Assembly (NCBI RefSeq): GCF_046581935.1 | Contig: NZ_JAYGFK010000022.1 | Coordinates: 2,540-66,539 of the forward strand | Reading direction: 5' to 3' | DNA: 64,000 nucleotides | Source of the DNA: Pseudomonas sp. | GTDB taxonomy: Bacteria; Pseudomonadota; Gammaproteobacteria; Pseudomonadales; Pseudomonadaceae | Shown: positions 5,976 to 30,515 of the stretch, piece after piece | Numbering within the stretch: position 1 is the first letter of the stretch | How the letters are laid out: the number at the start of each line of letters is the position of its first letter | Translations under genes and position numbers: made by a program | The notes under the pieces: generated by a model | Told to the model about the DNA's origin: nothing | Database searches by the model: none | Seen by the model: the letters and a program-made list of their open reading frames with translations, nothing else

Positions 5976-6264
5976 CGGGGCATCCGCTCTGCGAGCTGTT
6001 CGCAAAAAAACGCCGATTGTACTGCATGGCGCGGCCAAGACCTGAGTGTCAGTCATCGTCTATAGGGCTTGCTTGGGCCGGTGTAACCGCCGATGGGGCG
6101 TTGGGTAACAGTATGGCGGCAGCCCGCGCCTAACCGAGTGAAGGGTTTCGGATTTTTCTCGACTATGGGTTGGCACGTTTAGGCGGTTGTTTTTTTATAG
6201 TGCTAATCAAGGCGTGGAGTCCGCAGTACTCCGCCATTCAAATAAGAACGACAGGGAATCAGCC

Positions 6265-20235: not shown

Positions 20236-21138
20236 ATGCGTCACTCTGCCCGTTACGCCGTTGCCGGTTTGCTGTTGGCGGTTCTCTGTTGGTCCGGTAA
20301 TGCCCTGGTGGCCCGCGCCTTTGCTGGCCAGATCTCGCCGTTTACCCTGTCTTTCTGGCGCTGGACTCTAGCCTTGTCGCTGCTGTTGCCCTTTGTGGCG
20401 AAACCGCTGTGGCAGCATCGCCGCGAGTTGCAGGCCGCTGGTTGGCGTTTGCTGGTGCTCGCGGCTGTCGGCATCGCTGGCTATAACAGCATGCTGTACG
20501 CCGCAGCACAGACCACTGCGGCGATCAATATCACCCTGGTAAACACCTGTTTACCGCTGATGACCTTTATTGGTGCCGGCGTACTGCTCGGTGAGTGGCC
20601 GCAACGACGTGCCTGGCTCGGCCTGGGCGTGGCGGCCATCGGTCTGCTAGTGCTAATTACCCGAGCCAGCTGGACGACCCTGAGCACGCTGTCGTTCAAC
20701 CATGGTGACCTGATCATGCTGCTCGCCGTGGCGGATTGGGCGCTGTATTCGCTGCTGCTACGGCGCTGGGCCAGCTACCTGCAAGCCATTCCGCCACTGG
20801 CATTGTTGGGCGTGCTGATGTTGCTGGGCGTGCCCTTAATCTTGCCGCTCTATCTGTACGAGCTGAGCCAAGGCGCGCGCTTCGTGCCGACTGCAGCCAC
20901 CCTTGGTGCCATCGCTTACACCGCAGTATTCGCCTCGCTGCTGGCCTACCTGTGCTGGAACCATGGCGTGCGCGTCGTTGGGGCGGCCAAGGCCGCGCTG
21001 AGCAACTACCTGATGCCGGTGTTCACCGCCATCCTCGGCTGGCTCCTGCTGGGCGAAGGGTTGCAACTATTCCACTGGGTCGGAGGCGCACTTATTTTCA
21101 GCGGGTTGCTATTGGGCACCAAGCGGCCGGCCAGCTAA
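20236..21138 (+). CDS. DMT/EamA-family transporter
   Basis: 300 aa, about 10 hydrophobic segments, two EamA halves. Confidence 0.9.
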   Translation: MRHSARYAVAGLLLAVLCWSGNALVARAFAGQISPFTLSFWRWTLALSLLLPFVAKPLWQHRRELQAAGWRLLVLAAVGIAGYNSMLYAAAQTTAAINITLVNTCLPLMTFIGAGVLLGEWPQRRAWLGLGVAAIGLLVLITRASWTTLSTLSFNHGDLIMLLAVADWALYSLLLRRWASYLQAIPPLALLGVLMLLGVPLILPLYLYELSQGARFVPTAATLGAIAYTAVFASLLAYLCWNHGVRVVGAAKAALSNYLMPVFTAILGWLLLGEGLQLFHWVGGALIFSGLLLGTKRPAS

Positions 21139-21158
21139 TTAGCCTGTGCTGCACTGAT

Positions 21159-21317
21159 TTACTGACGCTGCCCTACGTTAAGCGGAACAGCTGCCTGCAC
21201 ATACGCCACCAGCTTTTCCAGGCTGGTCTGCAAGGGTTCGCTGCCGCTGGCGAGGGTTAGTTCTGGCAGGGTAGGGGCTTCGTAGGGCGCGCTGATATCT
21301 GAGAGTTCGGCGTTGCG
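21159..21317 (-). pseudogene. cysC: 3' remnant of adenylyl-sulfate kinase
   Basis: Minus-strand frame reads RNAELSDISAPYEAPTLPELTLASGSEPLQTSLEKLVAYVQ...stop (21159-21161). ISAPYEAPxxPEL is the CysC C-terminal motif. In-frame TAG at 21318-21320 and no N-terminal P-loop part. Confidence 0.7.
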
Positions 21318-21428
21318 CTAAAGGTCCTGCCGGGGTGTCCAGAATCATTGAGCCACAACAACCTTCTTGCTGTTAGTCGGAAAGCACGACAAAGTTAAGC
21401 CTTCTTTGAGCTGCATTTTGGTTGTCTC

Positions 21429-22390
21429 ATGACTGAACGTTCCTCCAGATCGTCCGGGAATCCCTCTATCAATGAGCAATCGGAGGAGAATTTTTCTGAT
21501 AACGAAGGTTGGATCGCATGGCGAAACTTGACCACTGAAGCCATGGGGCGTTTTCACGAGCAGCTTCTTGCGAACGTTTCCAGGGCCCCGGGTTTGGTGG
21601 GCTACGAGGCAGCGAAACGCGCACGGGCAGCTAGTGGGAACTTTGCCTGGTCTTGGGGGGCAGCTGCTGAAATTCAGGAAACTATCAATACGATAAATTC
21701 GTGGGGGGGCACCTTCATGACTGGTGCGCTTGGAATGCCGTTGTTGAGTCATTTGAGACGGATGAAGATAAAGGGCAGCTGCTGCACCACTTCGTTAACC
21801 CCTTAGCTTTCTTCTGCATGCATCAACCTAGCGCAGTCAGTGATCTCCTGATGCTTCTTACCGAGACACTTTTACATCAGGCGAACTGTCTTGTAGAACC
21901 AGGCTACGTTGATCGACTTGATCAGGATGGTTTGAGACCTTGACAAGGGCTTCGACGCTCTGATCGCAGAAAACAGGTCATTCGCCTCGGTCACTGCTGG
22001 ACACGATTTAATGGGTTTCTGGCTGCGTTGGATGCAATCAATGACTCTGCCTATCGAAAACTTAGTCGCAATTTCCGCGACCTATCTGTTCACTCATTTG
22101 CACCTAGGTTCATGGTCGGGCAAATCATGCGCGCATTTCGTTCGATTGAGCCTTGGCAAGAACTCGTGGAGCAACCGGGCGGCGGCTCCTTACTTGTAGA
22201 TCATCCAACTAAGAAATGCGTCAGCTACACGATGTGTGTGCTGGAACCTTTTCCTCTCCGCGATGCATGCTCAGCCAGCCTTTCTGAGTACCAAAAAGTA
22301 GTGACCGCTATGAGTGCATTCTCTGAGCTGCTTGAGGAAATATGCGACAGCATGGATGCGATACCAGATCGCTTATCGGGACAGTCGTAG
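21429..22390 (+). pseudogene. Interrupted hypothetical gene with an RxxxxH (HEPN-like) motif
   Basis: Three ORF pieces join into one protein if G7 at 21703-21709 becomes G8 and the in-frame TGA at 21941-21943 is read through. Motif RDLSVH lies in the last piece. Confidence 0.6.
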
Positions 22391-22426
22391 GCTGGGATAA
22401 GGTTGAGACACTTGTGGGACACCCCG

Positions 22427-22519
22427 AAAACAAAAAAGGGCTTACCTTTCGGTAAACCCTTGTTTTGTTTGGTGGCTACGCAGGGACTTGAACCCCGGAC
22501 CCCAGCATTATGAATGCTA
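22427..22519. repeat. Left att repeat: 3' half of tRNA-Met (22470-22519) plus terminator hairpin
   Basis: 93-bp direct repeat of 30396-30488 with 2 mismatches; the 50-nt tRNA part is identical. Confidence 0.92.
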
Positions 22520-22599
22520 GGGTGTGCCAATACCCTGGCATTTATGATCTTTGATAAGCCTATACAGAATGAGGCTTTCAGCCTATCCTCGATCTTGCT

Positions 22600-22665
22600 G
22601 GCTATCACCAAATTTGATGATTTTTGATAGCCCGTGCTAGCCCGGTGATAGCCCGTCGCTAGCCC
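22600..22665. repeat. Putative integrase arm-type binding sites (left end)
   Basis: TAGCCC at 22628, 22638, 22649 and 22660, plus an inverted GGCTATCACC at 22600. The 22-mer 22634-22655 recurs exactly at 30372-30393. Confidence 0.65.
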
Positions 22666-22696
22666 AATCAATCCTCTGCGATCCTGAGGAGCGGGC

Positions 22697-24049
22697 ATGG
22701 TAAAGCTGAGATTCACCAAAACGGCACTGATGGCGGTCGCTCTGCCCGAGGCAGGTAAGCGAGTTGCCGTCTATGACACCGACACCCCAAAGCTCGCCAT
22801 GCGTATTACCGCAGCAGGCAGTCGCACCTTTTACGTTGTGAAGCGTGCCGGCGCCTCTATGGCATGGGTGAAGCTGGGCACCTTCCCTGAGATGACTGTC
22901 GAGCAGGCGCGCGGCGAAGCGCAAAAGATCCTTGCCGAGTTCGCCACCGGAGCGAATCCAGCCGCAGCCCGTCGTGCTATTCGAGAGGAACCGACTTTTT
23001 CCGAGGTGTTCGAGCAGTTCCTCACCGGCAAGAAAAAGCGCGACGGTACTCCCCTGGCTGAATCTACAAAGCAGGGTTATCGGGTAGTGCTGCGCGACTA
23101 CCTGGAACCGATCAAATCGAAAAAGCTTTCCCACATCACGCGCGGCGAAGTGAAGGCGATCCACAGCAAAACCACAAAGGTAAGCGCGTCCCAGGCTGAC
23201 CGCGCCCTTGCCGTTGTTTCCTCGGTCTTTAACTTTGCTGCCGACCTGGAAATCTTCACCGGCACCAGCCCGACCAGTCGCATTCAGAAGAACCCTGCGC
23301 CGTCGCGTGACCGCTTTGCCCAAGGAGTTGAGCTGCCATACCTGTTCGCCGCCATTGCCGAGTCGAGCCTGCGCGACTTCTTTATGCTGGCGCTGCTGAC
23401 CGGCGCACGCCGGGCCAACGTACAGTCGATGGCCTGGCGCGACGTAGATCTAGAGGCCCGTGTCTGGCGTATTGGCATGACCAAGAACGGCACACCGCAG
23501 AACGTCACGCTATCGCCTGAGGCCGTGGCCGCACTGGCCGCCCGCAAGCACACGACAGGCACATCACCATTCGTATTCCCCGGCGAGGGTAAGACGGGGC
23601 ACTTAGTCGAGCCAAAAAAAGCATGGGCTGCCATTCTGCTGCGCGCCAGTCTGCGCCGCCTACTCGATCACTTGGAAAGTTCCGGCAAGCTGACTGCCGA
23701 GGAGCGCAAGCAGGCTGGCTATGAGGTGATGACCGCCCCTGCAACCGCAGCAAGGCGCTATCGGGCCATCGCCGCCGCGCTGGGAATTGACCCCGCAACC
23801 TACGATATGACCGACCTGCGCATTCACGACTTACGCCGCACCCTTGGCAGTTGGCAGGCCAAGACTGGCGCGTCTATGGCGATCATTGGCAAGAGCCTGA
23901 ATCACAAGACCCAGCAGGCCACGGCTATCTATGCACGGCTTGACCTCGATCCCGTGCGGCAGTCGGTCAATACGGCAACCCAGGCAATGCTTGAGGCTGC
24001 AGGTATCAGGCAGTCTGCGGACGTGGTGCCGATCAATCGCAATCAATAA
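22697..24049 (+). CDS. int: Tyrosine recombinase/integrase with N-terminal arm-binding domain
   Basis: Catalytic set TGARR, TKNG, HDLRRT, LNHK, IYAR. N-terminal arm domain (YDTDTPKLAMRITAAGSRTFY). Confidence 0.95.
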   Translation: MVKLRFTKTALMAVALPEAGKRVAVYDTDTPKLAMRITAAGSRTFYVVKRAGASMAWVKLGTFPEMTVEQARGEAQKILAEFATGANPAAARRAIREEPTFSEVFEQFLTGKKKRDGTPLAESTKQGYRVVLRDYLEPIKSKKLSHITRGEVKAIHSKTTKVSASQADRALAVVSSVFNFAADLEIFTGTSPTSRIQKNPAPSRDRFAQGVELPYLFAAIAESSLRDFFMLALLTGARRANVQSMAWRDVDLEARVWRIGMTKNGTPQNVTLSPEAVAALAARKHTTGTSPFVFPGEGKTGHLVEPKKAWAAILLRASLRRLLDHLESSGKLTAEERKQAGYEVMTAPATAARRYRAIAAALGIDPATYDMTDLRIHDLRRTLGSWQAKTGASMAIIGKSLNHKTQQATAIYARLDLDPVRQSVNTATQAMLEAAGIRQSADVVPINRNQ

Positions 24050-24152
24050 GACAGCGCAGGCCAGCTGCATACATCGGCTGGGCAAAAAGCAGATTTTCTA
24101 CTTGCCTGGCTAGCAGATTTGTTCAGTAGTTGGATCGCCTGGAGGGCGAACA

Positions 24153-24761
24153 ATGAGCGAAGACGAAAAGGAAACATCCGAGCTGCGCCTTGGCTTGCAG
24201 GCCTGCTTGCAGCCTGGCTTTCACCTAGAGAAACAGTGGAACCCAGGTGTGAGTGTTGCCTCCCCTGAGGAGTTTCACCAATTCACGGCTCAACTCGCTA
24301 AGAGTTTACTGGAAACCAATTCTCCTGAGCACATCGCCACCATCGCAGCTCAGCACATAATCCTTTCGGATATGTCGAAATGCGTATTGGATAAGGCTAA
24401 TGAGGGCTTAGTTAAGGCTCTTACAGAAACTGCTCTGAAGGCAGCACTTCTTGGGGCTTTCGCGCATAGAAAGAAGGCAGCCAAGAAGCGCATGGCTGGA
24501 GGGCTCGATGAGCGTAATAATCGGGCTGCGCTCATAGGAAGGGAGATTCAGCGTCATGCCGAGGAGCTTTGGTCCGCCGATACCGATAAGGAGTTCAAGG
24601 TTACAGATATGGCACGCTTGGTGAAGGACGCCGTGGAACGAGACTACTCGGAAGGGACACCTGGCCTTGATCGTATCAAGGTGTTGATTAGGCCTTTGGC
24701 CCCCCAATATGCGCGTGAAGGAGGTGCGCCCAAAGGCAAGCGCGCGCGCTCAAAACCATAG
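24153..24761 (+). CDS. Hypothetical islet protein (helical, basic C-terminus)
   Basis: 202 aa with GGAGGG RBS, between int and alpA. Basic tail GGAPKGKRARSKP. Confidence 0.65.
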   Translation: MSEDEKETSELRLGLQACLQPGFHLEKQWNPGVSVASPEEFHQFTAQLAKSLLETNSPEHIATIAAQHIILSDMSKCVLDKANEGLVKALTETALKAALLGAFAHRKKAAKKRMAGGLDERNNRAALIGREIQRHAEELWSADTDKEFKVTDMARLVKDAVERDYSEGTPGLDRIKVLIRPLAPQYAREGGAPKGKRARSKP

Positions 24762-24765
24762 TGAG

Positions 24766-24793
24766 CGTAACGAGTATTAAGGTACTCGTTACG
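24766..24793. promoter_or_regulatory. 11-bp perfect inverted repeat upstream of alpA (candidate operator)
   Basis: CGTAACGAGTA-ttaagg-TACTCGTTACG. Confidence 0.55.
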
Positions 24794-24865
24794 GCTGTGA
24801 ATATTACTAACCCCTGCAATGCCAGATCATGACTCCTCCGAATCACACTCGTTGGAGTTAGACCC

Positions 24866-25150
24866 ATGCCCACCAGCCAATCCACAGAGCTTGTAACGCT
24901 CAAAGCCGAGATCGCCGCGCAGATCGCCGCACAGCTCGGTTTTAATCCAAAGACCCCGCCCGTAAACGTAGATGACAAGTCAGCTGCCGCGGTGCTTGGG
25001 GTACAGACAAACACATTATCTGTCTGGCGCTCACTAGGTCGCTATAACCTGCCCTACGTCAAAATCGGGCGGTCGGTGAAATATCGAATCAGCGACCTTG
25101 CCGAGTTTATTGCAAACCGCACCGCCTGCAACACCGGGGAGGCCAGCTAA
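24866..25150 (+). CDS. AlpA/excisionase-like helix-turn-helix protein
   Basis: VDDKSAAAVLGVQTNTLSVWRSLGRYNLPYVKIGRSVKYRISDLAEF; GGAG RBS. Confidence 0.85.
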   Translation: MPTSQSTELVTLKAEIAAQIAAQLGFNPKTPPVNVDDKSAAAVLGVQTNTLSVWRSLGRYNLPYVKIGRSVKYRISDLAEFIANRTACNTGEAS

Positions 25151-25629
25151 TGGACGACTTCCAGCTGTTCGACGGTGTTGCATTCAGCTGCCTAGAAAAT
25201 GAGCCGGCAACGATCCGCACCGGCCCTACGATTTATCTCGACCTACTCCCGCCATGCGCCTGCGGGTCACCCTCCGATGACACCCTGCTGAGCATCGTCT
25301 TTGCGTTGCTTGATGGTGGCTTTGCCGGAGTGCGCCAGCTAATTGGGGATGAGCTAAGTACAGCAACAAGCCTTCTGCTCACTGACTCCGACCTTGCGAG
25401 TGACAGGTCGATTTGGCTTTGGATTGACCCGGACAGCATTGAGGGTAAAACCATCATTGCCGTGCTGTGCAACATAAGAAGCGGCACATCCAAAACTGCT
25501 CAAGAGCTGGCTGACCATGCGATCCGCATTCTTGAATGCGCCTTTACAGAAGCCGGCCGCAAGGAGGAGTTTGGCGCTGCAGTACAGCGAATTTTGAAGA
25601 AGCGCCGCCATGAGGGGGCGAAGGAATGA
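25150..25629 (+). CDS. Hypothetical protein
   Basis: 159 aa, coupled to alpA (TAATG) and to the primase gene (ATGA). Confidence 0.65.
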   Translation: MDDFQLFDGVAFSCLENEPATIRTGPTIYLDLLPPCACGSPSDDTLLSIVFALLDGGFAGVRQLIGDELSTATSLLLTDSDLASDRSIWLWIDPDSIEGKTIIAVLCNIRSGTSKTAQELADHAIRILECAFTEAGRKEEFGAAVQRILKKRRHEGAKE

Positions 25630-28049
25630 GCATGCGACTTGATACCAATCAACATCAGGCGGCAACTGCGCAGTTTGACTACAGCAAAGTGCCCGAAGCT
25701 ATGAAGCGCCTGCCGCGCTGGATCGGCTTCACCGACAAAAAGGTGCCGGTCGATCCCCTTACAGGGTTCAGGTTGGACCACACCGACGCCACCCGACATC
25801 TGACATTTGAAACGGCACACGCCGGCTATCTGGCCGGCCATTGTTTCGCCTTGGGCTTCTGTATCGTCGAGAGTGACGGTGTCAGCTGCGTTGACTTGGA
25901 CAAGGTGCGCGGCAACCCTGAGCGCGAGCAGCGTGCAGCAGAGATCCTGCAAAAGATGCCCGGCTGGGTTGAGCGCAGTATGAGCGGCACAGGTCTGCAC
26001 ATCTGGGGTTATGGCGCGGGCAAGTCATTCAAAACAGCAGGCGGCCTAGAGTTCTACACCAACAAGCGCGCCATGCTAATCACCGGCAAGGTAATGCCGC
26101 AGTCCTTGGCCGCAGACCTGATCGACTTACACGCCGGCAGTCAGTGGCTTGCTACAACCTTCAATCAAAAAGCCGCGCCAGCGGCTCAACACCCAGCGGC
26201 ACTGCAGCTAGGCCCGCCGCCATCCCATTTGTATCTTGTCGGTGCAAGAGAGCTAAACACCGAGGCCGCAGGCAATCTAAGCGCCGGTCACGGCGATGAG
26301 GCCGAGCGGGTCCGTAGCGCCCTTGCTGTGCTGCCTGCCGATGACTATGACGCATGGTGGCAGACGGGACTGGCCCTCTACCGATCCACGCTTGAGCCTC
26401 AACAGGCTTACACAATCTGGCTGGACTGGTCGGCAACCAGCACCGAGAAATTCAGCGAACAGGTTTGTCAGGATAAATGGGCCAGCTTCTCTACCTCGGG
26501 CCAACCAGCGTCAGCAATCACACTGGGCACAATCTTTCACCGCGCCAAGCAAGCCGGCTGGGCAGATGCAGCTCATGCCGCTCAACCATGGCGCACTCCG
26601 GATACCCTGCTGACTGAGCCACAGCCCGCGCCATATCCAACAGCGAGCTTGCCAACGCTAATGCGCGAGGCCGTCAAAGCCATTGCCCATCATGTTGACG
26701 CACCCGAAGCTCTGGCCGCGCAGTGCGTAATAGCGGCAGCGGCATACTTGGCTCAAACGCGAATCAACGCGCCGCACATTCATTACCCCGATGGCATGCC
26801 TTGTTCGCTTTATCAGATGGCGCTGGCCGACTCCGGCGACCGCAAGAGCGCTTGCTACCGCCTAGCCTTCAAGCCTCTGATGGAAGCAGAGCGGCAGGAG
26901 CGCGACCGGCACGCCGCCATCGAGGCAGAACACAACCTCCGGGCAAGCCTGCTGAAAGGCAAAGCCCTGCAGGATTTTGAGAACAACAACAGGCTGCCAG
27001 CCAATCCGCGCACCATGTACACCGATTCGACCTTTGAAAAAATTGCCAAGGACTTTGTAGCAGGTATGCCGGCCGCATCCTGGGCAACCGATGAAGGCGG
27101 TAGGGTACTGGGTGGCCACAGTATGCAGGCCGAAACTCGGGCGGCAACCCTAGGCGGACTGGTCAAGCTTTACGACGATGGCACTGTAGAGCGTGACCGG
27201 GCTGGCGAGAGTGGCGGCATAGCCTATGACCGCCGTTTCACCATGCACCTGATGGCTCAGGCCGTTACCGTCAGGGACGCGCTAAATGACCCGCTGCTGC
27301 AGGGGCAGGGTTTTCTGCCTCGTTTCCTGCTGACCTCGGCACCTTCGCTCGCCGGCACCCGATTCATCACCGCCGAAACACTGCAAAACTCGGCCTATAG
27401 GAATTCTGCCATTCAGCGTTACTGGCAGCGCGTGAAGGAGATTGCGGCAACGCCCCGGCACGTTGCTGAGACGGGCGCAGTTCGCCCACCCGTGATTGCC
27501 CTGGCGGCGGATGCGCTGCAAGTTTGGATAGATTTTTACAACAGGGTTGAGGCTGAGCAGAGCCGGGGTGGTGATTACGCTGGCCCTATAAAACCCTTTG
27601 CCAGCCGTGCCGGCGAAAACGCTCGCAGGGTTGCAGCAGTCTTTACCCTGTTTAATGGCGAGCAGGAGATAACCGGCCCCACCATGACCGCTGCCTGTGA
27701 AGTAGTCGAGCACTCGCTTGGCGAGTGGGCGCGCTGGCTGGGCGGCAGTGGTACGGAAACCAGAGACAACAGGGACGCACTCGACTTGCTGGCCTGGCTC
27801 AAAGCCAAGGGACTTGATTCAATTCATCGCGACAAGCTGGGCACCAGCGGCCCCGTTCGTGGCAGAGCCAAACAGCGTGACAAGCTGCTCGGCATCCTTC
27901 TGGAGGCGGGCTGGATGCGCAGTGCAGACGGTCGGAATTTTGAAGTTAATCCGCAGCCCCTTGCAGATTGTGCAGATTCCGCTGAAAGGCCCATTACACC
28001 AGGGGCAAGCAGTGCAGACCCCGTGCAGATCACTGCAGAGAAAGGCTAG
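25626..28049 (+). CDS. Replicase: AEP primase-polymerase + PriCT-2 + DUF3987 (YfjI-like) P-loop domain
   Basis: AEP motifs CVDLDK, SMSGTGLHIW, GLEFY. PriCT-2-like DDYDAWWQTGLAL...WLDWS...KWASF...ITLGTIFHRAKQAGW. DUF3987-like ADSGDRKS, TDEGG, QGFLPRFL, RAGENARRVA. Confidence 0.85.
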   Translation: MSMRLDTNQHQAATAQFDYSKVPEAMKRLPRWIGFTDKKVPVDPLTGFRLDHTDATRHLTFETAHAGYLAGHCFALGFCIVESDGVSCVDLDKVRGNPEREQRAAEILQKMPGWVERSMSGTGLHIWGYGAGKSFKTAGGLEFYTNKRAMLITGKVMPQSLAADLIDLHAGSQWLATTFNQKAAPAAQHPAALQLGPPPSHLYLVGARELNTEAAGNLSAGHGDEAERVRSALAVLPADDYDAWWQTGLALYRSTLEPQQAYTIWLDWSATSTEKFSEQVCQDKWASFSTSGQPASAITLGTIFHRAKQAGWADAAHAAQPWRTPDTLLTEPQPAPYPTASLPTLMREAVKAIAHHVDAPEALAAQCVIAAAAYLAQTRINAPHIHYPDGMPCSLYQMALADSGDRKSACYRLAFKPLMEAERQERDRHAAIEAEHNLRASLLKGKALQDFENNNRLPANPRTMYTDSTFEKIAKDFVAGMPAASWATDEGGRVLGGHSMQAETRAATLGGLVKLYDDGTVERDRAGESGGIAYDRRFTMHLMAQAVTVRDALNDPLLQGQGFLPRFLLTSAPSLAGTRFITAETLQNSAYRNSAIQRYWQRVKEIAATPRHVAETGAVRPPVIALAADALQVWIDFYNRVEAEQSRGGDYAGPIKPFASRAGENARRVAAVFTLFNGEQEITGPTMTAACEVVEHSLGEWARWLGGSGTETRDNRDALDLLAWLKAKGLDSIHRDKLGTSGPVRGRAKQRDKLLGILLEAGWMRSADGRNFEVNPQPLADCADSAERPITPGASSADPVQITAEKG

Positions 28050-28160
28050 CGCATGCAGCCCTTCGCCAAGCCCAGTAAACAATCTGCACGCTTCTGCAAT
28101 CAGTCTGCAGCCCGAGGCCCAGCAGTTCCGGGGATTTCAGCGGAATCTGCACGGTCTGCA
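27962..28160. repeat. Mirror-symmetric iteron array, putative replication origin
   Basis: TGCAGA at 27962, 27971, 28013, 28024, 28034 and TCTGCA at 28083, 28093, 28104, 28146, 28155, all symmetric about 28061. 18-bp perfect IR at 27970-27987 / 28135-28152. Confidence 0.8.
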
Positions 28161-28262
28161 GTAGTCGGCACGCAGTCAACGCTCAGGCCTGGATGTGGCC
28201 ACAAACTCAAGCGCTACCTGTAACCACCACCTGCAAATAATGATTTTGGAAGGAGCAAAGCC

Positions 28263-28592
28263 GTGTCTGCATACACCTCAAGACTGCTAAAGCAGATAGC
28301 CGCTCAGCGCATGCAGCAAAAGCCAGCGCCCAGCCAGGCAGAGACGTTCAGGGAAAAACACGATGCTTGGTTTGCCAGCCTGCCCCCGGCATCCAAGCAC
28401 CGGCACTGGTCAATAGAGGAGATAGCCAGTGCGTTGAAGATTGCGCCCCGCGAGTTAAGCCAGACCTTGCTTGATGCTGGTTGGTTGCGAAAGCGAATAT
28501 GGTTTGAGCGGAGCAAGGGGCAGGGACGGTATTTGCGGGTTTGGATACCTCCGCAAATTCATAAATTATGCGGAGAAGATATGACTCGATAA
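28263..28592 (+). CDS. Small hypothetical protein, possible HTH/winged helix
   Basis: GTG start after AAGGAG. WSIEEIASALKIAPRELSQTLLDAGWLRKR segment. Confidence 0.6.
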   Translation: MSAYTSRLLKQIAAQRMQQKPAPSQAETFREKHDAWFASLPPASKHRHWSIEEIASALKIAPRELSQTLLDAGWLRKRIWFERSKGQGRYLRVWIPPQIHKLCGEDMTR

Positions 28593-28594
28593 CC

Positions 28595-29047
28595 CTAGTC
28601 AAATGCCCCATATATACTGGTCGGGCCTATCAGTTTTTCATAATTGCCGCTTTGAATGATTTTATCCTTATATAAATTCCCATCAGTAAAGTTATCAAAC
28701 CACTCAAATTTTGTCCTGCCATCAAGATACTCAATGCGCACATAGTATTCAACGGCGCTGCCGGAGTTAGTGTATCCAGCGCCTATATGATGGCAAGATA
28801 TAGGTATGCTCCCATTAATTACCTCTCCAGGATGGTTTTCAATAAACTTTTCTAGCCTTCCATCACAGTCAGATATCTCCCTCTCCTTTAATTTTTGGTT
28901 GCAGTTAAAATTGCGGATTGCCTGCTGTATGTAACCTAGAAGACCCATAAAAACCTCTTCGCCGAGCATGGAGGCGCTGGCTAAATTAAATTGCATGGCA
29001 ATCACAAAAAATAATTCCTGCCTTGAGTAAAGTATTAGCTTGGGCAA
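28595..29047 (-). CDS. Hypothetical AT-rich cargo protein
   Basis: 150-aa ORF in a visibly AT-rich segment; start uncertain (may be the internal MQF or MGL). Confidence 0.5.
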   Translation of the reverse strand: MPKLILYSRQELFFVIAMQFNLASASMLGEEVFMGLLGYIQQAIRNFNCNQKLKEREISDCDGRLEKFIENHPGEVINGSIPISCHHIGAGYTNSGSAVEYYVRIEYLDGRTKFEWFDNFTDGNLYKDKIIQSGNYEKLIGPTSIYGAFD

Positions 29048-29105
29048 ATTGCTCGCATGCTACATGGACGTTCGCCTCCGGCGAAACTGTCGGCAAGCTA
29101 GTGGT

Positions 29106-29408
29106 TCATCTGCCCAGCCCAAATAGTAGGGCTGGAATGCATGGAGCAAAAATAACGAATAAATAAGCAAGGCCCTTATTTTTTTCTGCCCAGGCGTACA
29201 TTGGGGAGCGGGATGAGACCACGAGCCATATGGCTAATGGGAATGTGATGAGCGGGCTTAGAAGCCACAAGCTACCGCCTGTACCGCCCGAGGCATCACC
29301 TTGAGTAGATTCAGTTATCGTATTCATCGGGTTTGCAGCAAGAATTATTTCGCATTGAACAAAGGCTAATGCTGCAGAGATAACTATTTTGATTTTGGAT
29401 GTGTCCAT
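29106..29408 (-). CDS. Small hypothetical membrane protein (cargo)
   Basis: 100 aa, GGAG RBS. Signal-like N-terminus plus two hydrophobic helices. Confidence 0.55.
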   Translation of the reverse strand: MDTSKIKIVISAALAFVQCEIILAANPMNTITESTQGDASGGTGGSLWLLSPLITFPLAIWLVVSSRSPMYAWAEKNKGLAYLFVIFAPCIPALLFGLGR

Positions 29409-29591
29409 GTTTTATGTGGCTCCTTGGTGGTGCCGTTCTAATTTATGGTTTTTAGTTATTGAGTTTATTGCGTATTTGAATGTCTGTGCATTCCTGCTGA
29501 GAGGAAGTGTAGCAAGTAGGAGTGACGTAAGTTTTCGGATAAGTATCTTAATAACTATGGTTGAATTTGGGAGAGGGTTTTTATGGGTTAT

Positions 29592-29861
29592 TTAAGATTT
29601 CTGCTGCAGACTTAACCCTTTCTGTCCTATTTGCCAATTTTGAAAATCTAAGTCAGCCTTGCCAACGCCAGCTTTTCTCAGCCATTTGGCACACGAGTCA
29701 ATCGAGCGCCATTGGCGCACATCACCGCGCCCAGTCATTAAGACCTTAGCCGTGCCCGTCGTTTTCGCCTCAACGTGAAACAGGCTGCCCTGTGCCGTGA
29801 TAAAGATGGACTTGACCGCCCCGGCCTCCAGCAGCAACTTTAACTCGCGCTCATTCATCAT
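29592..29861 (-). CDS. Small plasmid-type protein (resembles proteins annotated ParC/RepB-like), partner of the RHH gene
   Basis: MMNERELKLLLEAGAVKSIFITAQG...GRGDVRQWRSIDSCAKWLRKAGV. Start overlaps the RHH stop. Confidence 0.6.
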   Translation of the reverse strand: MMNERELKLLLEAGAVKSIFITAQGSLFHVEAKTTGTAKVLMTGRGDVRQWRSIDSCAKWLRKAGVGKADLDFQNWQIGQKGLSLQQKS

Positions 29862-30042
29862 CTCTATCCTCTTGGGGGAAAAGCTCCGCCTGGTCAGGTA
29901 TCGACACCCCAATGCGCTCGCAATGCTGACGAATCAGCACCTCTACCAGATTGGCAATACTTCGATGCTCTTGGGCTGCCGCGATCCGCGCAGCCTCTTT
30001 CAATACCGGATCAATGCGCAGATTCAGTGTTGCCGTTTTCAT
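29851..30042 (-). CDS. Ribbon-helix-helix (Arc/CopG/HicB-like) DNA-binding protein
   Basis: MKTATLNLRIDPVLKEAARIAAAQEHRSIANLVEVLIR: beta-ribbon, helix, RS-turn, helix pattern. Confidence 0.8.
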   Translation of the reverse strand: MKTATLNLRIDPVLKEAARIAAAQEHRSIANLVEVLIRQHCERIGVSIPDQAELFPQEDRDDE

Positions 30043-30060
30043 TGAAGGCCTCGCTACACG

Positions 30061-30098
30061 ATGTAATCACAATGTAACGCAGTTTGCGTTATCGGCAA
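30061..30098 (-). promoter_or_regulatory. Candidate promoter/operator of the RHH operon
   Basis: Minus strand TTGCCG-16nt-TACATT. Palindrome TAACGCA-gtt-TGCGTTA (30075-30091) and two ATGTAA direct repeats (30061, 30072). Confidence 0.45.
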
Positions 30099-30371
30099 GT
30101 GATTTCCCCGAAGTGATCTCGTAAGCCGACAAGCGGACAGATTGATACAGCCGAAAAATTTTCTTGGTGAATTGTGCGAGCAAGGGATAAGGGATACCCC
30201 TAAATTGCAATGGCCCCCCAGCGCCCTGCAGGGCCGGGTAATGATTCTTTGAGGCTAAGGCTGAGCCGTATAGGCCTTGATGAATTAGCGCGAGATTTGG
30301 CTGCTTAGCGTTGAGATGGCGCGTGATGCGCCGGGAGGAGGGGTGCAGATATTCGGCTAGATTTCTCGCCA

Positions 30372-30393
30372 GTGCTAGCCCGGTGATAGCCCG
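30372..30393. repeat. Putative integrase arm-type sites (right end)
   Basis: GTGCTAGCCCGGTGATAGCCCG, identical to 22634-22655. Confidence 0.65.
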
Positions 30394-30395
30394 CT

Positions 30396-30488
30396 AAAAC
30401 AAAAAAGGGCTTAGCTTTCGCTAAACCCTTGTTTTGTTTGGTGGCTACGCAGGGACTTGAACCCCGGACCCCAGCATTATGAATGCTA
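30396..30488. repeat. Right att repeat, including the tRNA 3' half and downstream terminator hairpin
   Basis: Direct repeat of 22427-22519. Confidence 0.92.
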
Positions 30489-30515
30489 TGCTCTAACCAG
30501 CTGAGCTACGTAGCC
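30439..30515 (-). tRNA. tRNA-Met (CAT), elongator type
   Basis: GGCTACGTAGCTCAGCTGGTTAGAGCATAGCATTCATAATGCTGGGGTCCGGGGTTCAAGTCCCTGCGTAGCCACCA, 77 nt with encoded CCA. Confidence 0.95.

Follow-up and report, generated by a model that had tools for sequence, protein, structure and literature searches.

An intact 7,969-bp island in an elongator tRNA-Met gene of Pseudomonas shares the gene order of minimalist phage satellites

Phage-inducible chromosomal minimalist islands (PICMI) are modelled as a co-localised integrase, an AlpA protein (PF05930/PF12728) and a primase (DUF3987, PF13148, or DUF5906); fis is mandatory in the final model, and integration adjacent to fis is considered their "hallmark characteristic" (PMC10803314). 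Excision or replication of PICMI115 depends on each of the genes int, iolg, alpA and prim, of which alpA suffices by itself to activate the island; according to the authors, there is no complete PICMI outside Vibrio (PMC10803314). Virion-encapsidated integrative mobile elements (VEIMEs), described from marine viromes, are thought to replicate as concatemers that fill helper capsids without remodelling them, and some of them carry plasmid-like partition genes (PMC9618062). Here we describe an element of 7,969 bp in a 64,000-nucleotide (nt) window of a Pseudomonas sp. genome, the window being the whole stretch of DNA that was analysed and to whose positions all coordinates refer. To our knowledge, marine Vibrio, with its PICMI, is the only host in which minimal satellites free of packaging genes have been shown to function. 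The Pseudomonas element is a bounded, intact insertion in an elongator tRNA-Met gene, and very probably an island that excises and replicates. That it is an integrative, self-replicating island, of a family of the Pseudomonas mendocina group, moved between cells by a phage helper is a reading to which we give an even chance.

The tRNA-Met(CAT) gene, of the elongator type, lies on the minus strand at 30439–30515, as detected by ARAGORN and Rfam; it is also the only Rfam match over 20–32 kb. A direct-repeat search revealed one long repeat in the region, at 22422–22519 and 30391–30488, with a start-to-start spacing of 7,969 bp. The two copies, of 98 nt each, differ by 4 mismatches that all fall within the first 31 nt, and the remaining 67 nt of exact identity consist of 17 nt located 3' of the tRNA and the last 50 nt of the tRNA. 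The tRNA part begins at tRNA position 28, in the anticodon stem. The initial annotation had given att cores of 50 nt; its spacing and its anticodon-stem start hold, whereas the repeat proper is longer and includes the terminator. No third copy exists in the window or in the 5.08-Mb host genome (99.99% complete).

The copy at 22422–22519 (minus strand) is attL, the displaced chromosomal copy, and comprises the original tRNA terminator (22422–22469) and the 3' 50 nt of the tRNA-Met (22470–22519). The copy at 30391–30488 (minus strand) is attR, borne by the element, from which the working tRNA-Met gene takes its terminator and its 3' 50 nt. Because the element brings its own tRNA 3' half and terminator, the tRNA gene is rebuilt upon insertion. 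A terminator-like hairpin is found in the attL copy at 22461–22436. Between the two copies of the terminator (22436–22461 and 30405–30430) one stem pair has changed in a compensatory manner, ACC/GGT in one and AGC/GCT in the other, which accounts for two of the 4 mismatches, so that the hairpin is preserved in both the chromosomal and the element-borne terminator.

The element is absent from all 40 related genomes that were examined for the empty site. In one related species (G022), the left flank (21360–22517, 92% identity) joins an intact tRNA-Met directly; in another (G021), the terminator, the tRNA and the right flank (91%) are present without the element, and the attL copy is 98.9% identical to this empty-site sequence. 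A synthetic attB, assembled from the two flanks, can be aligned through the junction in both species. Judged from these alignments, the insertion is genuine and, measured against the divergence of the species, recent. The locus thus displays what characterises islands inserted by tRNA-targeting tyrosine integrases at the anticodon-loop sublocation, namely direct repeats of the 3' segment of a tRNA from the anticodon stem-loop on, a neighbouring integrase that has an arm-binding domain, and relatives in which the site is empty. The neighbours of the element are island debris on one side and ychF-pth on the other. The debris side, between the conserved left-flank gene and attL (21113–22421), has a low GC content of 0.50–0.55 and is not conserved in G021; its counterpart in G022 (92% identical) is bounded by a further degenerate att-like copy. 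Since the G022 segment has this boundary of its own, the stretch looks like what is left of an island that occupied this tRNA-Met earlier.

The genes follow the order int, 202-aa open reading frame (ORF), AlpA-like helix-turn-helix (HTH) gene, 159-aa ORF, primase-helicase gene, iteron origin, 109-aa ORF, cargo slot and a ParC-like/ribbon-helix-helix (RHH) gene pair. The genes from int through the 109-aa ORF lie on the plus strand, and the cargo slot and the RHH/ParC-like bicistron on the minus strand. Scans of every ORF of the element against Pfam, PHROGs, NCBIfam and PADLOC, together with a check of the ORFs, confirm the gene content and co-orientation originally proposed. No capsid, portal, terminase, tail, relaxase, coupling-protein or mating-pore family was detected in any of them by Pfam, PHROGs or NCBIfam; the earlier statement that capsid, terminase, portal, relaxase and type IV secretion genes are missing stands in all four scans.

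The integrase (22697–24049, plus strand; 450 aa) is a tyrosine recombinase with an Arm-DNA-bind_3 domain, a SAM-like domain and a catalytic domain (PF00589, 1.2e-17; PF13356, 1.3e-12; phrog_1, 7.5e-47). Just upstream of its gene, in the int-proximal arm of the attP (22598–22666, plus strand), one inverted and four direct G(A/C)TAGCC(C/A) repeats are spaced by about 10–11 bp. The second arm (30372–30393, plus strand) holds two direct GTG(C/A)TAGCCCG repeats that abut the element-borne terminator. Number, spacing and orientation of the repeats are the same in every family member checked, including one inserted in a tRNA-Thr gene. With repeats on both sides of the core, the pattern is that expected of arm-type integrase sites, which they probably are. 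The 202-aa ORF (24153–24761, plus strand) occupies the position of iolg in PICMI and encodes a helical protein with a long coiled coil; it has no family match in any of the four collections, and its AlphaFold2 model (pLDDT 67) has no significant fold match in the PDB. Its homologues form only 16 clusters, all within islands of this kind. Two unrelated alleles occupy this position in the family, with some members carrying an unrelated ORF of 145–177 aa. A 51%-identical stretch of the 202-aa ORF is present in a different island, of the type int-alpA-Toprim-DUF927, at the same tRNA-Met in Pseudomonas sp. GWSMS-1, a finding which hints that the protein may work with the integration module, like iolg in PICMI.

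The AlpA-like protein (24866–25150, plus strand; 94 aa) is a candidate regulator of excision and activation. It matches HTH_17 (PF12728, 4e-6), with a score of 27.4 bits against a cut-off of 27, and phrog_66, "excisionase and transcriptional regulator" (4.7e-5), and is 93% identical in the relative from Ectopseudomonas toyotomiensis (L020). The following 159-aa ORF (25150–25629, plus strand), at the position of up1 in PICMI, overlaps alpA by 1 nt and the primase gene by an ATGA. It has no family match and evolves rapidly, with 52–58% identity between members.

The primase-helicase (25626–28049, plus strand; 807 aa) consists of an N-terminal PrimPol domain of the archaeo-eukaryotic type, a PriCT_2 domain (PF08707, 2.2e-15) and a YfjI-type DUF3987 ATPase/helicase domain (PF13148, 7.3e-58, 196.9 bits). 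The N-terminal region is matched by primase/polymerase PHROGs over residues 18–160 and by PDB chains named "Primase" over residues 25–184 (about 5e-9), and residues D90, D92 and H125 are invariant across the family. Overlapping the stop codon of the gene, 11 TCTGCA iterons are clustered at 27923–28160, the first six on the minus strand and the remaining five on the plus strand, with spacings of 9/42/11/10 mirrored about the stop codon. The hexamer occurs 48 times on both strands of the whole window, as in shuffled sequence, and the cluster is unique within it. Number and spacing of the iterons are kept in eight relatives (L020 and L069–L075) at 76–88% DNA identity; no iteron cluster was found in the examined portion of the GWSMS-1 relative, whose primase gene is interrupted by an insertion sequence (IS). 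In satellites and small plasmids, it is usual for an iteron origin to lie there, at the 3' end of the replicase gene. The cluster, which agrees with the origin candidate of the initial annotation, is taken as the candidate cognate origin of the primase-helicase.

A relative of the element, L069 (contig SRR30650669_13211), was assembled with a length of 8,301 bp and a terminal overlap of 30 nt, which gives a circle of 8,271 bp that is 88% identical in DNA to the 7,969-bp element. The att core is wholly contained in it, between the right arm and the left arm with int, and it has no complete tRNA. A synthetic attP, obtained by joining the two ends found in the window, is collinear with L069 (92% over 418 nt), which carries exactly the predicted attP and a perfectly conserved second arm. 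A single integrated copy cannot yield this junction, and L069 therefore speaks for members of the family being excised, replicating or packaged, in the form of an extrachromosomal circle or concatemer. Because the att core is unbranched in the SRR30650669 assembly, chromosomal junctions were rare or absent there. Excision, as originally proposed, or a circular existence thus receives indirect support from this relative. A literature search by the accession of the run yielded no paper. Most run contigs of about the length of the element end exactly inside the att repeat, where an assembly graph with k=31 is expected to break at an integrated copy; four such contigs (L070, L071, L074 and L084) were considered as further circles and rejected on these grounds.

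The element is one of a family in the Pseudomonas mendocina group that numbers at least 15 variants of 7.2–9.0 kb, inserted in tRNA-Met or tRNA-Thr(CGT). Homologues of the 807-aa protein at 71–91% identity form about 19 clusters, and the named hosts are Ectopseudomonas mendocina, E. toyotomiensis and Pseudomonas spp. They include elements of 7,480 bp in the tRNA-Met of E. mendocina CP148074 (L089), of 7,494 bp in the tRNA-Thr(CGT) of E. toyotomiensis (L020) and of 8,997 bp in the tRNA-Thr(CGT) of Pseudomonas sp. SP16.1 (L090). A JGI metagenome contig (L076) carries a tRNA-Met insertion whose integrase is 98% identical to that of the window, and a full-length contig of 7,929 bp from run ERR12177257 (L084), which ends inside the att repeat, is 94.7% identical and has the same cargo; further run and metagenome contigs also belong to the family. 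The constant backbone is formed by int, an ORF, alpA, an ORF, the primase gene with its iterons and the 109-aa ORF, to which most members add the ParC-like and RHH genes. The family varies at three positions, of which the cargo slot is the most variable; the other two are the ORF that follows int and the one lying between alpA and the primase gene. Across 400 species of the genus, a DUF3987 homologue was found in 79, covering the C-terminal half only, and the full PrimPol-PriCT_2-DUF3987 fusion in none; the family is therefore narrow. The tRNA-Thr(CGT) members (L020, 6874–14424; L090, 4831–13921) have a 72%-identical integrase and the same arm repeats and iterons. As the last 50 residues of the L020 integrase are nevertheless 100% identical to those in the window, recombination within int is suggested.

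The layout compares closely with that of PICMI115, and the likeness to that island rests on gene order and organisation. PF00589, PF12728 and PF13148 are encoded within 5.4 kb, no ORF belongs to a capsid-remodelling or packaging family, and the order of int, an ORF, alpA, a small ORF, a DUF3987-type primase gene and a variable slot before the attachment site is common to both (PMC10803314), as the initial annotation had recognised. Also shared are the size class (6–7 kb there, 7.2–9.0 kb here), the arrangement of alpA, the small ORF and prim as one operon, the lack of capsid and packaging genes, and a high gene turnover at the positions adjacent to int and alpA and in the cargo. By contrast, the primase of the Pseudomonas element is a fusion of PrimPol, PriCT_2 and DUF3987; a conserved, winged-helix-like 109-aa ORF and the RHH/ParC-like pair are additional; and no known defence gene is present in the slot. 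The element lies in tRNA-Met and its relatives in tRNA-Met or tRNA-Thr, not at fis, and the named relatives are Ectopseudomonas and Pseudomonas, not Vibrionaceae. The likeness to PICMI that had been proposed thus extends to the gene order and stops short of the hallmark. As far as sequence can tell, the element resembles PICMI in every feature, yet it is not a PICMI by the definition of that family, which requires insertion at fis and a host among the Vibrionaceae.

VEIMEs share with the element a small size, integrase, primase/helicase and AlpA genes and the absence of capsid genes (PMC9618062). They are defined by concatemers in virions, whereas the Pseudomonas family is known from genome, metagenome and run contigs and has no relative in IMG/VR, which does not archive virion reads. 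The Gram-negative phage-inducible chromosomal islands (PICIs) and P4-like satellites, both SatelliteFinder families, have in common with it the int-alpA-primase/replicase backbone, an origin beside the replicase gene and frequent integration in tRNA genes (PMC10085698). They are, however, about twice as large. The element has no terS, ppi, rpp or capsid-redirection genes, and cpm is absent as well; compared with P4, it lacks psu, delta, sid, epsilon and a P2-type cos site, and its primase is of the PrimPol/DUF3987 type rather than the alpha type (Toprim/D5). No PHROG or Pfam family places it among the P4-like satellites or the PICIs, of which the backbone is present and the packaging module missing. 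In Escherichia coli, the cryptic prophage CP4-57, at a tRNA-type site, groups an integrase, an AlpA excision activator and a DUF3987 protein into one block (intA-alpA-yfjI). CP4-57 is a larger cryptic prophage remnant, and its YfjI lacks the N-terminal half with PrimPol and PriCT_2; we know of no iteron origin described for it. Plasmid-borne DUF3987 homologues are likewise annotated as "YfjI family protein". The tmRNA/tRNA islands of the I55 family in Pseudomonas share direct repeats, a tyrosine integrase and the lack of autonomous transfer genes with the element, and I55 differs in being defence-rich, inserted in tmRNA and apparently several times bigger (PMC12595487). For I55, transfer mediated by a jumbo phage was demonstrated experimentally, and the discussion of that article places the limit of satellites at about 20 kb, with I55 above it (PMC12595487).

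By tyrosine-integrase recombination, the element inserted at the segment of the elongator tRNA-Met that runs from the anticodon stem to the 3' end. From these features, a life cycle can be proposed. The AlpA-like protein would turn on excision together with Int and possibly the product of the ORF after int, and would also drive the coupled operon of alpA, the 159-aa ORF and the primase gene. The PrimPol-PriCT_2-DUF3987 protein is predicted to load on the TCTGCA iterons at the 3' end of its own gene and to replicate the circle, the RHH/ParC-like pair may constitute an autoregulated module for maintenance or regulation, and the low-GC slot would hold exchangeable cargo. Since packaging, capsid, relaxase and mating-pore genes are all missing, intercellular transfer must use a helper, the most likely one being an infecting phage that would package replicated concatemers as in Vibrio PICMI and marine VEIMEs. 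We infer this phage-helper step only by analogy, and favour it because the gene order of PICMI, the packaging of VEIMEs (PMC9618062) and the transduction of Pseudomonas islands devoid of transfer genes by a jumbo phage (PMC12595487) provide precedents.

Several results weigh against a phage helper. The DNA of the element has no match among GenBank phages, and its primase protein finds only partial matches there, to the PrimPol N-terminus at about 31%. Among IMG/VR viral contigs, no relative was recovered by primase peptides, by family alignment or by the origin pattern, a weak negative given that such elements would rarely be classified as viral there. Neither a pac or cos site nor a gene for a small terminase or for interference with a helper can be recognised in the element, and its comparison with the remaining genome, made to find a mimic of pac, cos or oriT, gave only chance-level matches of 16–23 nt; its cargo slot has no known defence gene by PADLOC, contrary to characterised satellites. 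The host genome has no HK97 capsid, no portal and no terminase of four families, and in a host without these tailed-prophage hallmarks a phage helper would have to come from outside, as for PICMI. Finally, the circle is a single observation, from one public run, and a plasmid-like state would explain it equally well. The element might be an integrative, plasmid-like episome with no dedicated helper, alternating between its tRNA site and a low-copy circle maintained by the primase, the origin and the RHH/ParC-like pair, and spreading occasionally by generalised transduction, vesicles or transformation followed by integrase insertion. The circular relative without a chromosomal junction in its assembly agrees with such an episome, as do the similarity of one protein to the partition-associated ParC, the RHH protein beside attP, and the want of any virome or phage-database trace or recognisable helper-directed gene. 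Yet the element has neither ParA/ParB nor another complete partition system, and the match to ParC is weak, at 30 bits for a cut-off of 95, with the gene truncated in L020. Its DNA is not matched in the 72,556 plasmid records of PLSDB, where the primase protein finds only plasmid YfjI proteins over its C-terminal half, at about 28%. Moreover, the members in assembled genomes, and all but one of the metagenome and run contigs that reach an end, are integrated or end at the att repeat. We regard the episome as unlikely.

Conjugation offers another route, in line with the ICE that the initial annotation named as an alternative carrier, by which the element would be an integrative mobilisable element that travels through the relaxase and mating pore of a co-resident element. 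A suitable partner is present on contig C21 of the host (about 170–209 kb) as a Tn4371-like integrative and conjugative element (ICE), with genes for ParA, a relaxase-like ORF of 649 aa, a TraG-type coupling protein, trbB/E/J/L/F/I-like genes and an integrase beside pheST; the host thus has a type IV coupling protein in a trb-type ICE, in a genome where no tailed-prophage hallmark was found. Against this, neither the element nor any family member encodes a relaxase or mobilisation protein, no similarity to the rest of the genome, the ICE included, could represent a mimicked oriT, though a cryptic oriT is conceivable, and the int-alpA-primase layout is documented for phage satellites and not for mobilisable islands, which makes this route quite improbable. 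The opposite view, of a fixed and immobile remnant comparable to a cryptic prophage, whose int-alpA-yfjI stump only seems complete, has little in its favour: every core ORF is intact, the family conserves catalytic residues, the att repeats are near-perfect and related species lack the element, and the variants, one of them circular, are spread over two tRNA sites and many samples. The decay of the GWSMS-1 relative, in which an IS21-type element interrupts the primase gene and more IS copies are present, and the older debris left of the element at the tRNA-Met site would fit a remnant, a reading that we nevertheless find barely credible. Within the reading that invokes a phage helper, a more specific and rather doubtful possibility is that the family stands beside PICMI as a sister class that targets tRNA genes. 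It would then consist of obligate satellites of external, virulent or jumbo, Pseudomonas phages, induced by AlpA, replicated from iterons and packaged as multimers of about 8 kb without a packaging gene of their own, and the 109-aa protein or the RHH/ParC-like pair would provide an undescribed function such as helper recognition or episomal maintenance.

The family provides a test case in a culturable and tractable Pseudomonas, with clean boundaries, an attP with arm sites, a defined origin candidate, at least 15 natural variants that differ in cargo and tRNA target, and a free circle in one public run. If a helper phage is found, it becomes testable how an 8-kb element without pac, cos or terminase gene is packaged, which roles the conserved orphan genes play, and whether phage exclusion involves the small secreted or membrane cargo proteins. 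If there is no helper, the family would exemplify a tiny integrative replicon with a route of spread still to be explained.

Among the accessory genes, the 109-aa ORF (28263–28592, plus strand) is the most conserved. It is specific to the family, with 19 homologue clusters that all lie in islands of this family and 36 invariant columns, and probably encodes a winged-helix DNA-binding protein. Its model, of low confidence (pLDDT 58), shows a helix-turn-helix and a β-hairpin, and the fold matches, led by winged-helix regulators, are insignificant (E 0.2 or more). Profile searches of the PDB with the orphan 109-aa and 202-aa ORFs gave no match. The RHH and ParC-like genes form an overlapping bicistron (29592–30042, minus strand), in which the RHH protein (63 aa, 29851–30042; RHH_5 at 9e-4) precedes the ParC-like protein (89 aa, 29592–29861). 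The latter matches NCBIfam NF041544 ParC at 2.8e-7, the sub-threshold score given above, and no Pfam family; its relatives have a weak precomputed match to a ParC-like family, PF28031. Most family members keep the pair. A palindrome, TAACGCA-N3-TGCGTTA (30075–30091), upstream of the RHH gene is a candidate operator and was also picked up as a hairpin.

The cargo slot (28595–29408, minus strand) has a GC content of 0.43–0.45, against about 0.59 in the backbone of the element, and contains a soluble ORF of 133–150 aa (28595–29047) and a membrane protein of 100 aa (29106–29408). Neither ORF matches Pfam, PHROGs, NCBIfam or PADLOC. The content of the slot varies among members, and its GC content stays at 0.40–0.45 throughout the family. 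In relatives, it encodes small secreted or membrane proteins, DUF4124 proteins, an Adhesin_E-like protein and a DnaJ/zinc-ribbon protein; PADLOC found no defence family in the ORFs of the element or in ten cargo proteins from relatives. The 100-aa membrane protein recurs in otherwise different cargo sets (L070, L071, L077 and L084) at 54–100% identity and is the only semi-conserved cargo gene.

The GWSMS-1 locus (L059/L060, G041:C5:591260-614951) is a tandem array of 23.6 kb at tRNA-Met. Its family member has a 95%-identical integrase, and its primase gene is cut after codon 126 by the IS21-type element. The second island lies beside the tRNA in opposite orientation, with int, a 201-aa ORF, alpA, Toprim and a DUF927 helicase. 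The 23.6-kb unit was considered as a larger relative and rejected, being a tandem of an IS-riddled family member and the different int-alpA-Toprim-DUF927 island. In another relative, L082, the contig ends at 6100–6167 in a (GTTGCT)n microsatellite within the cargo slot, which is probably the reason why this assembly stops there.

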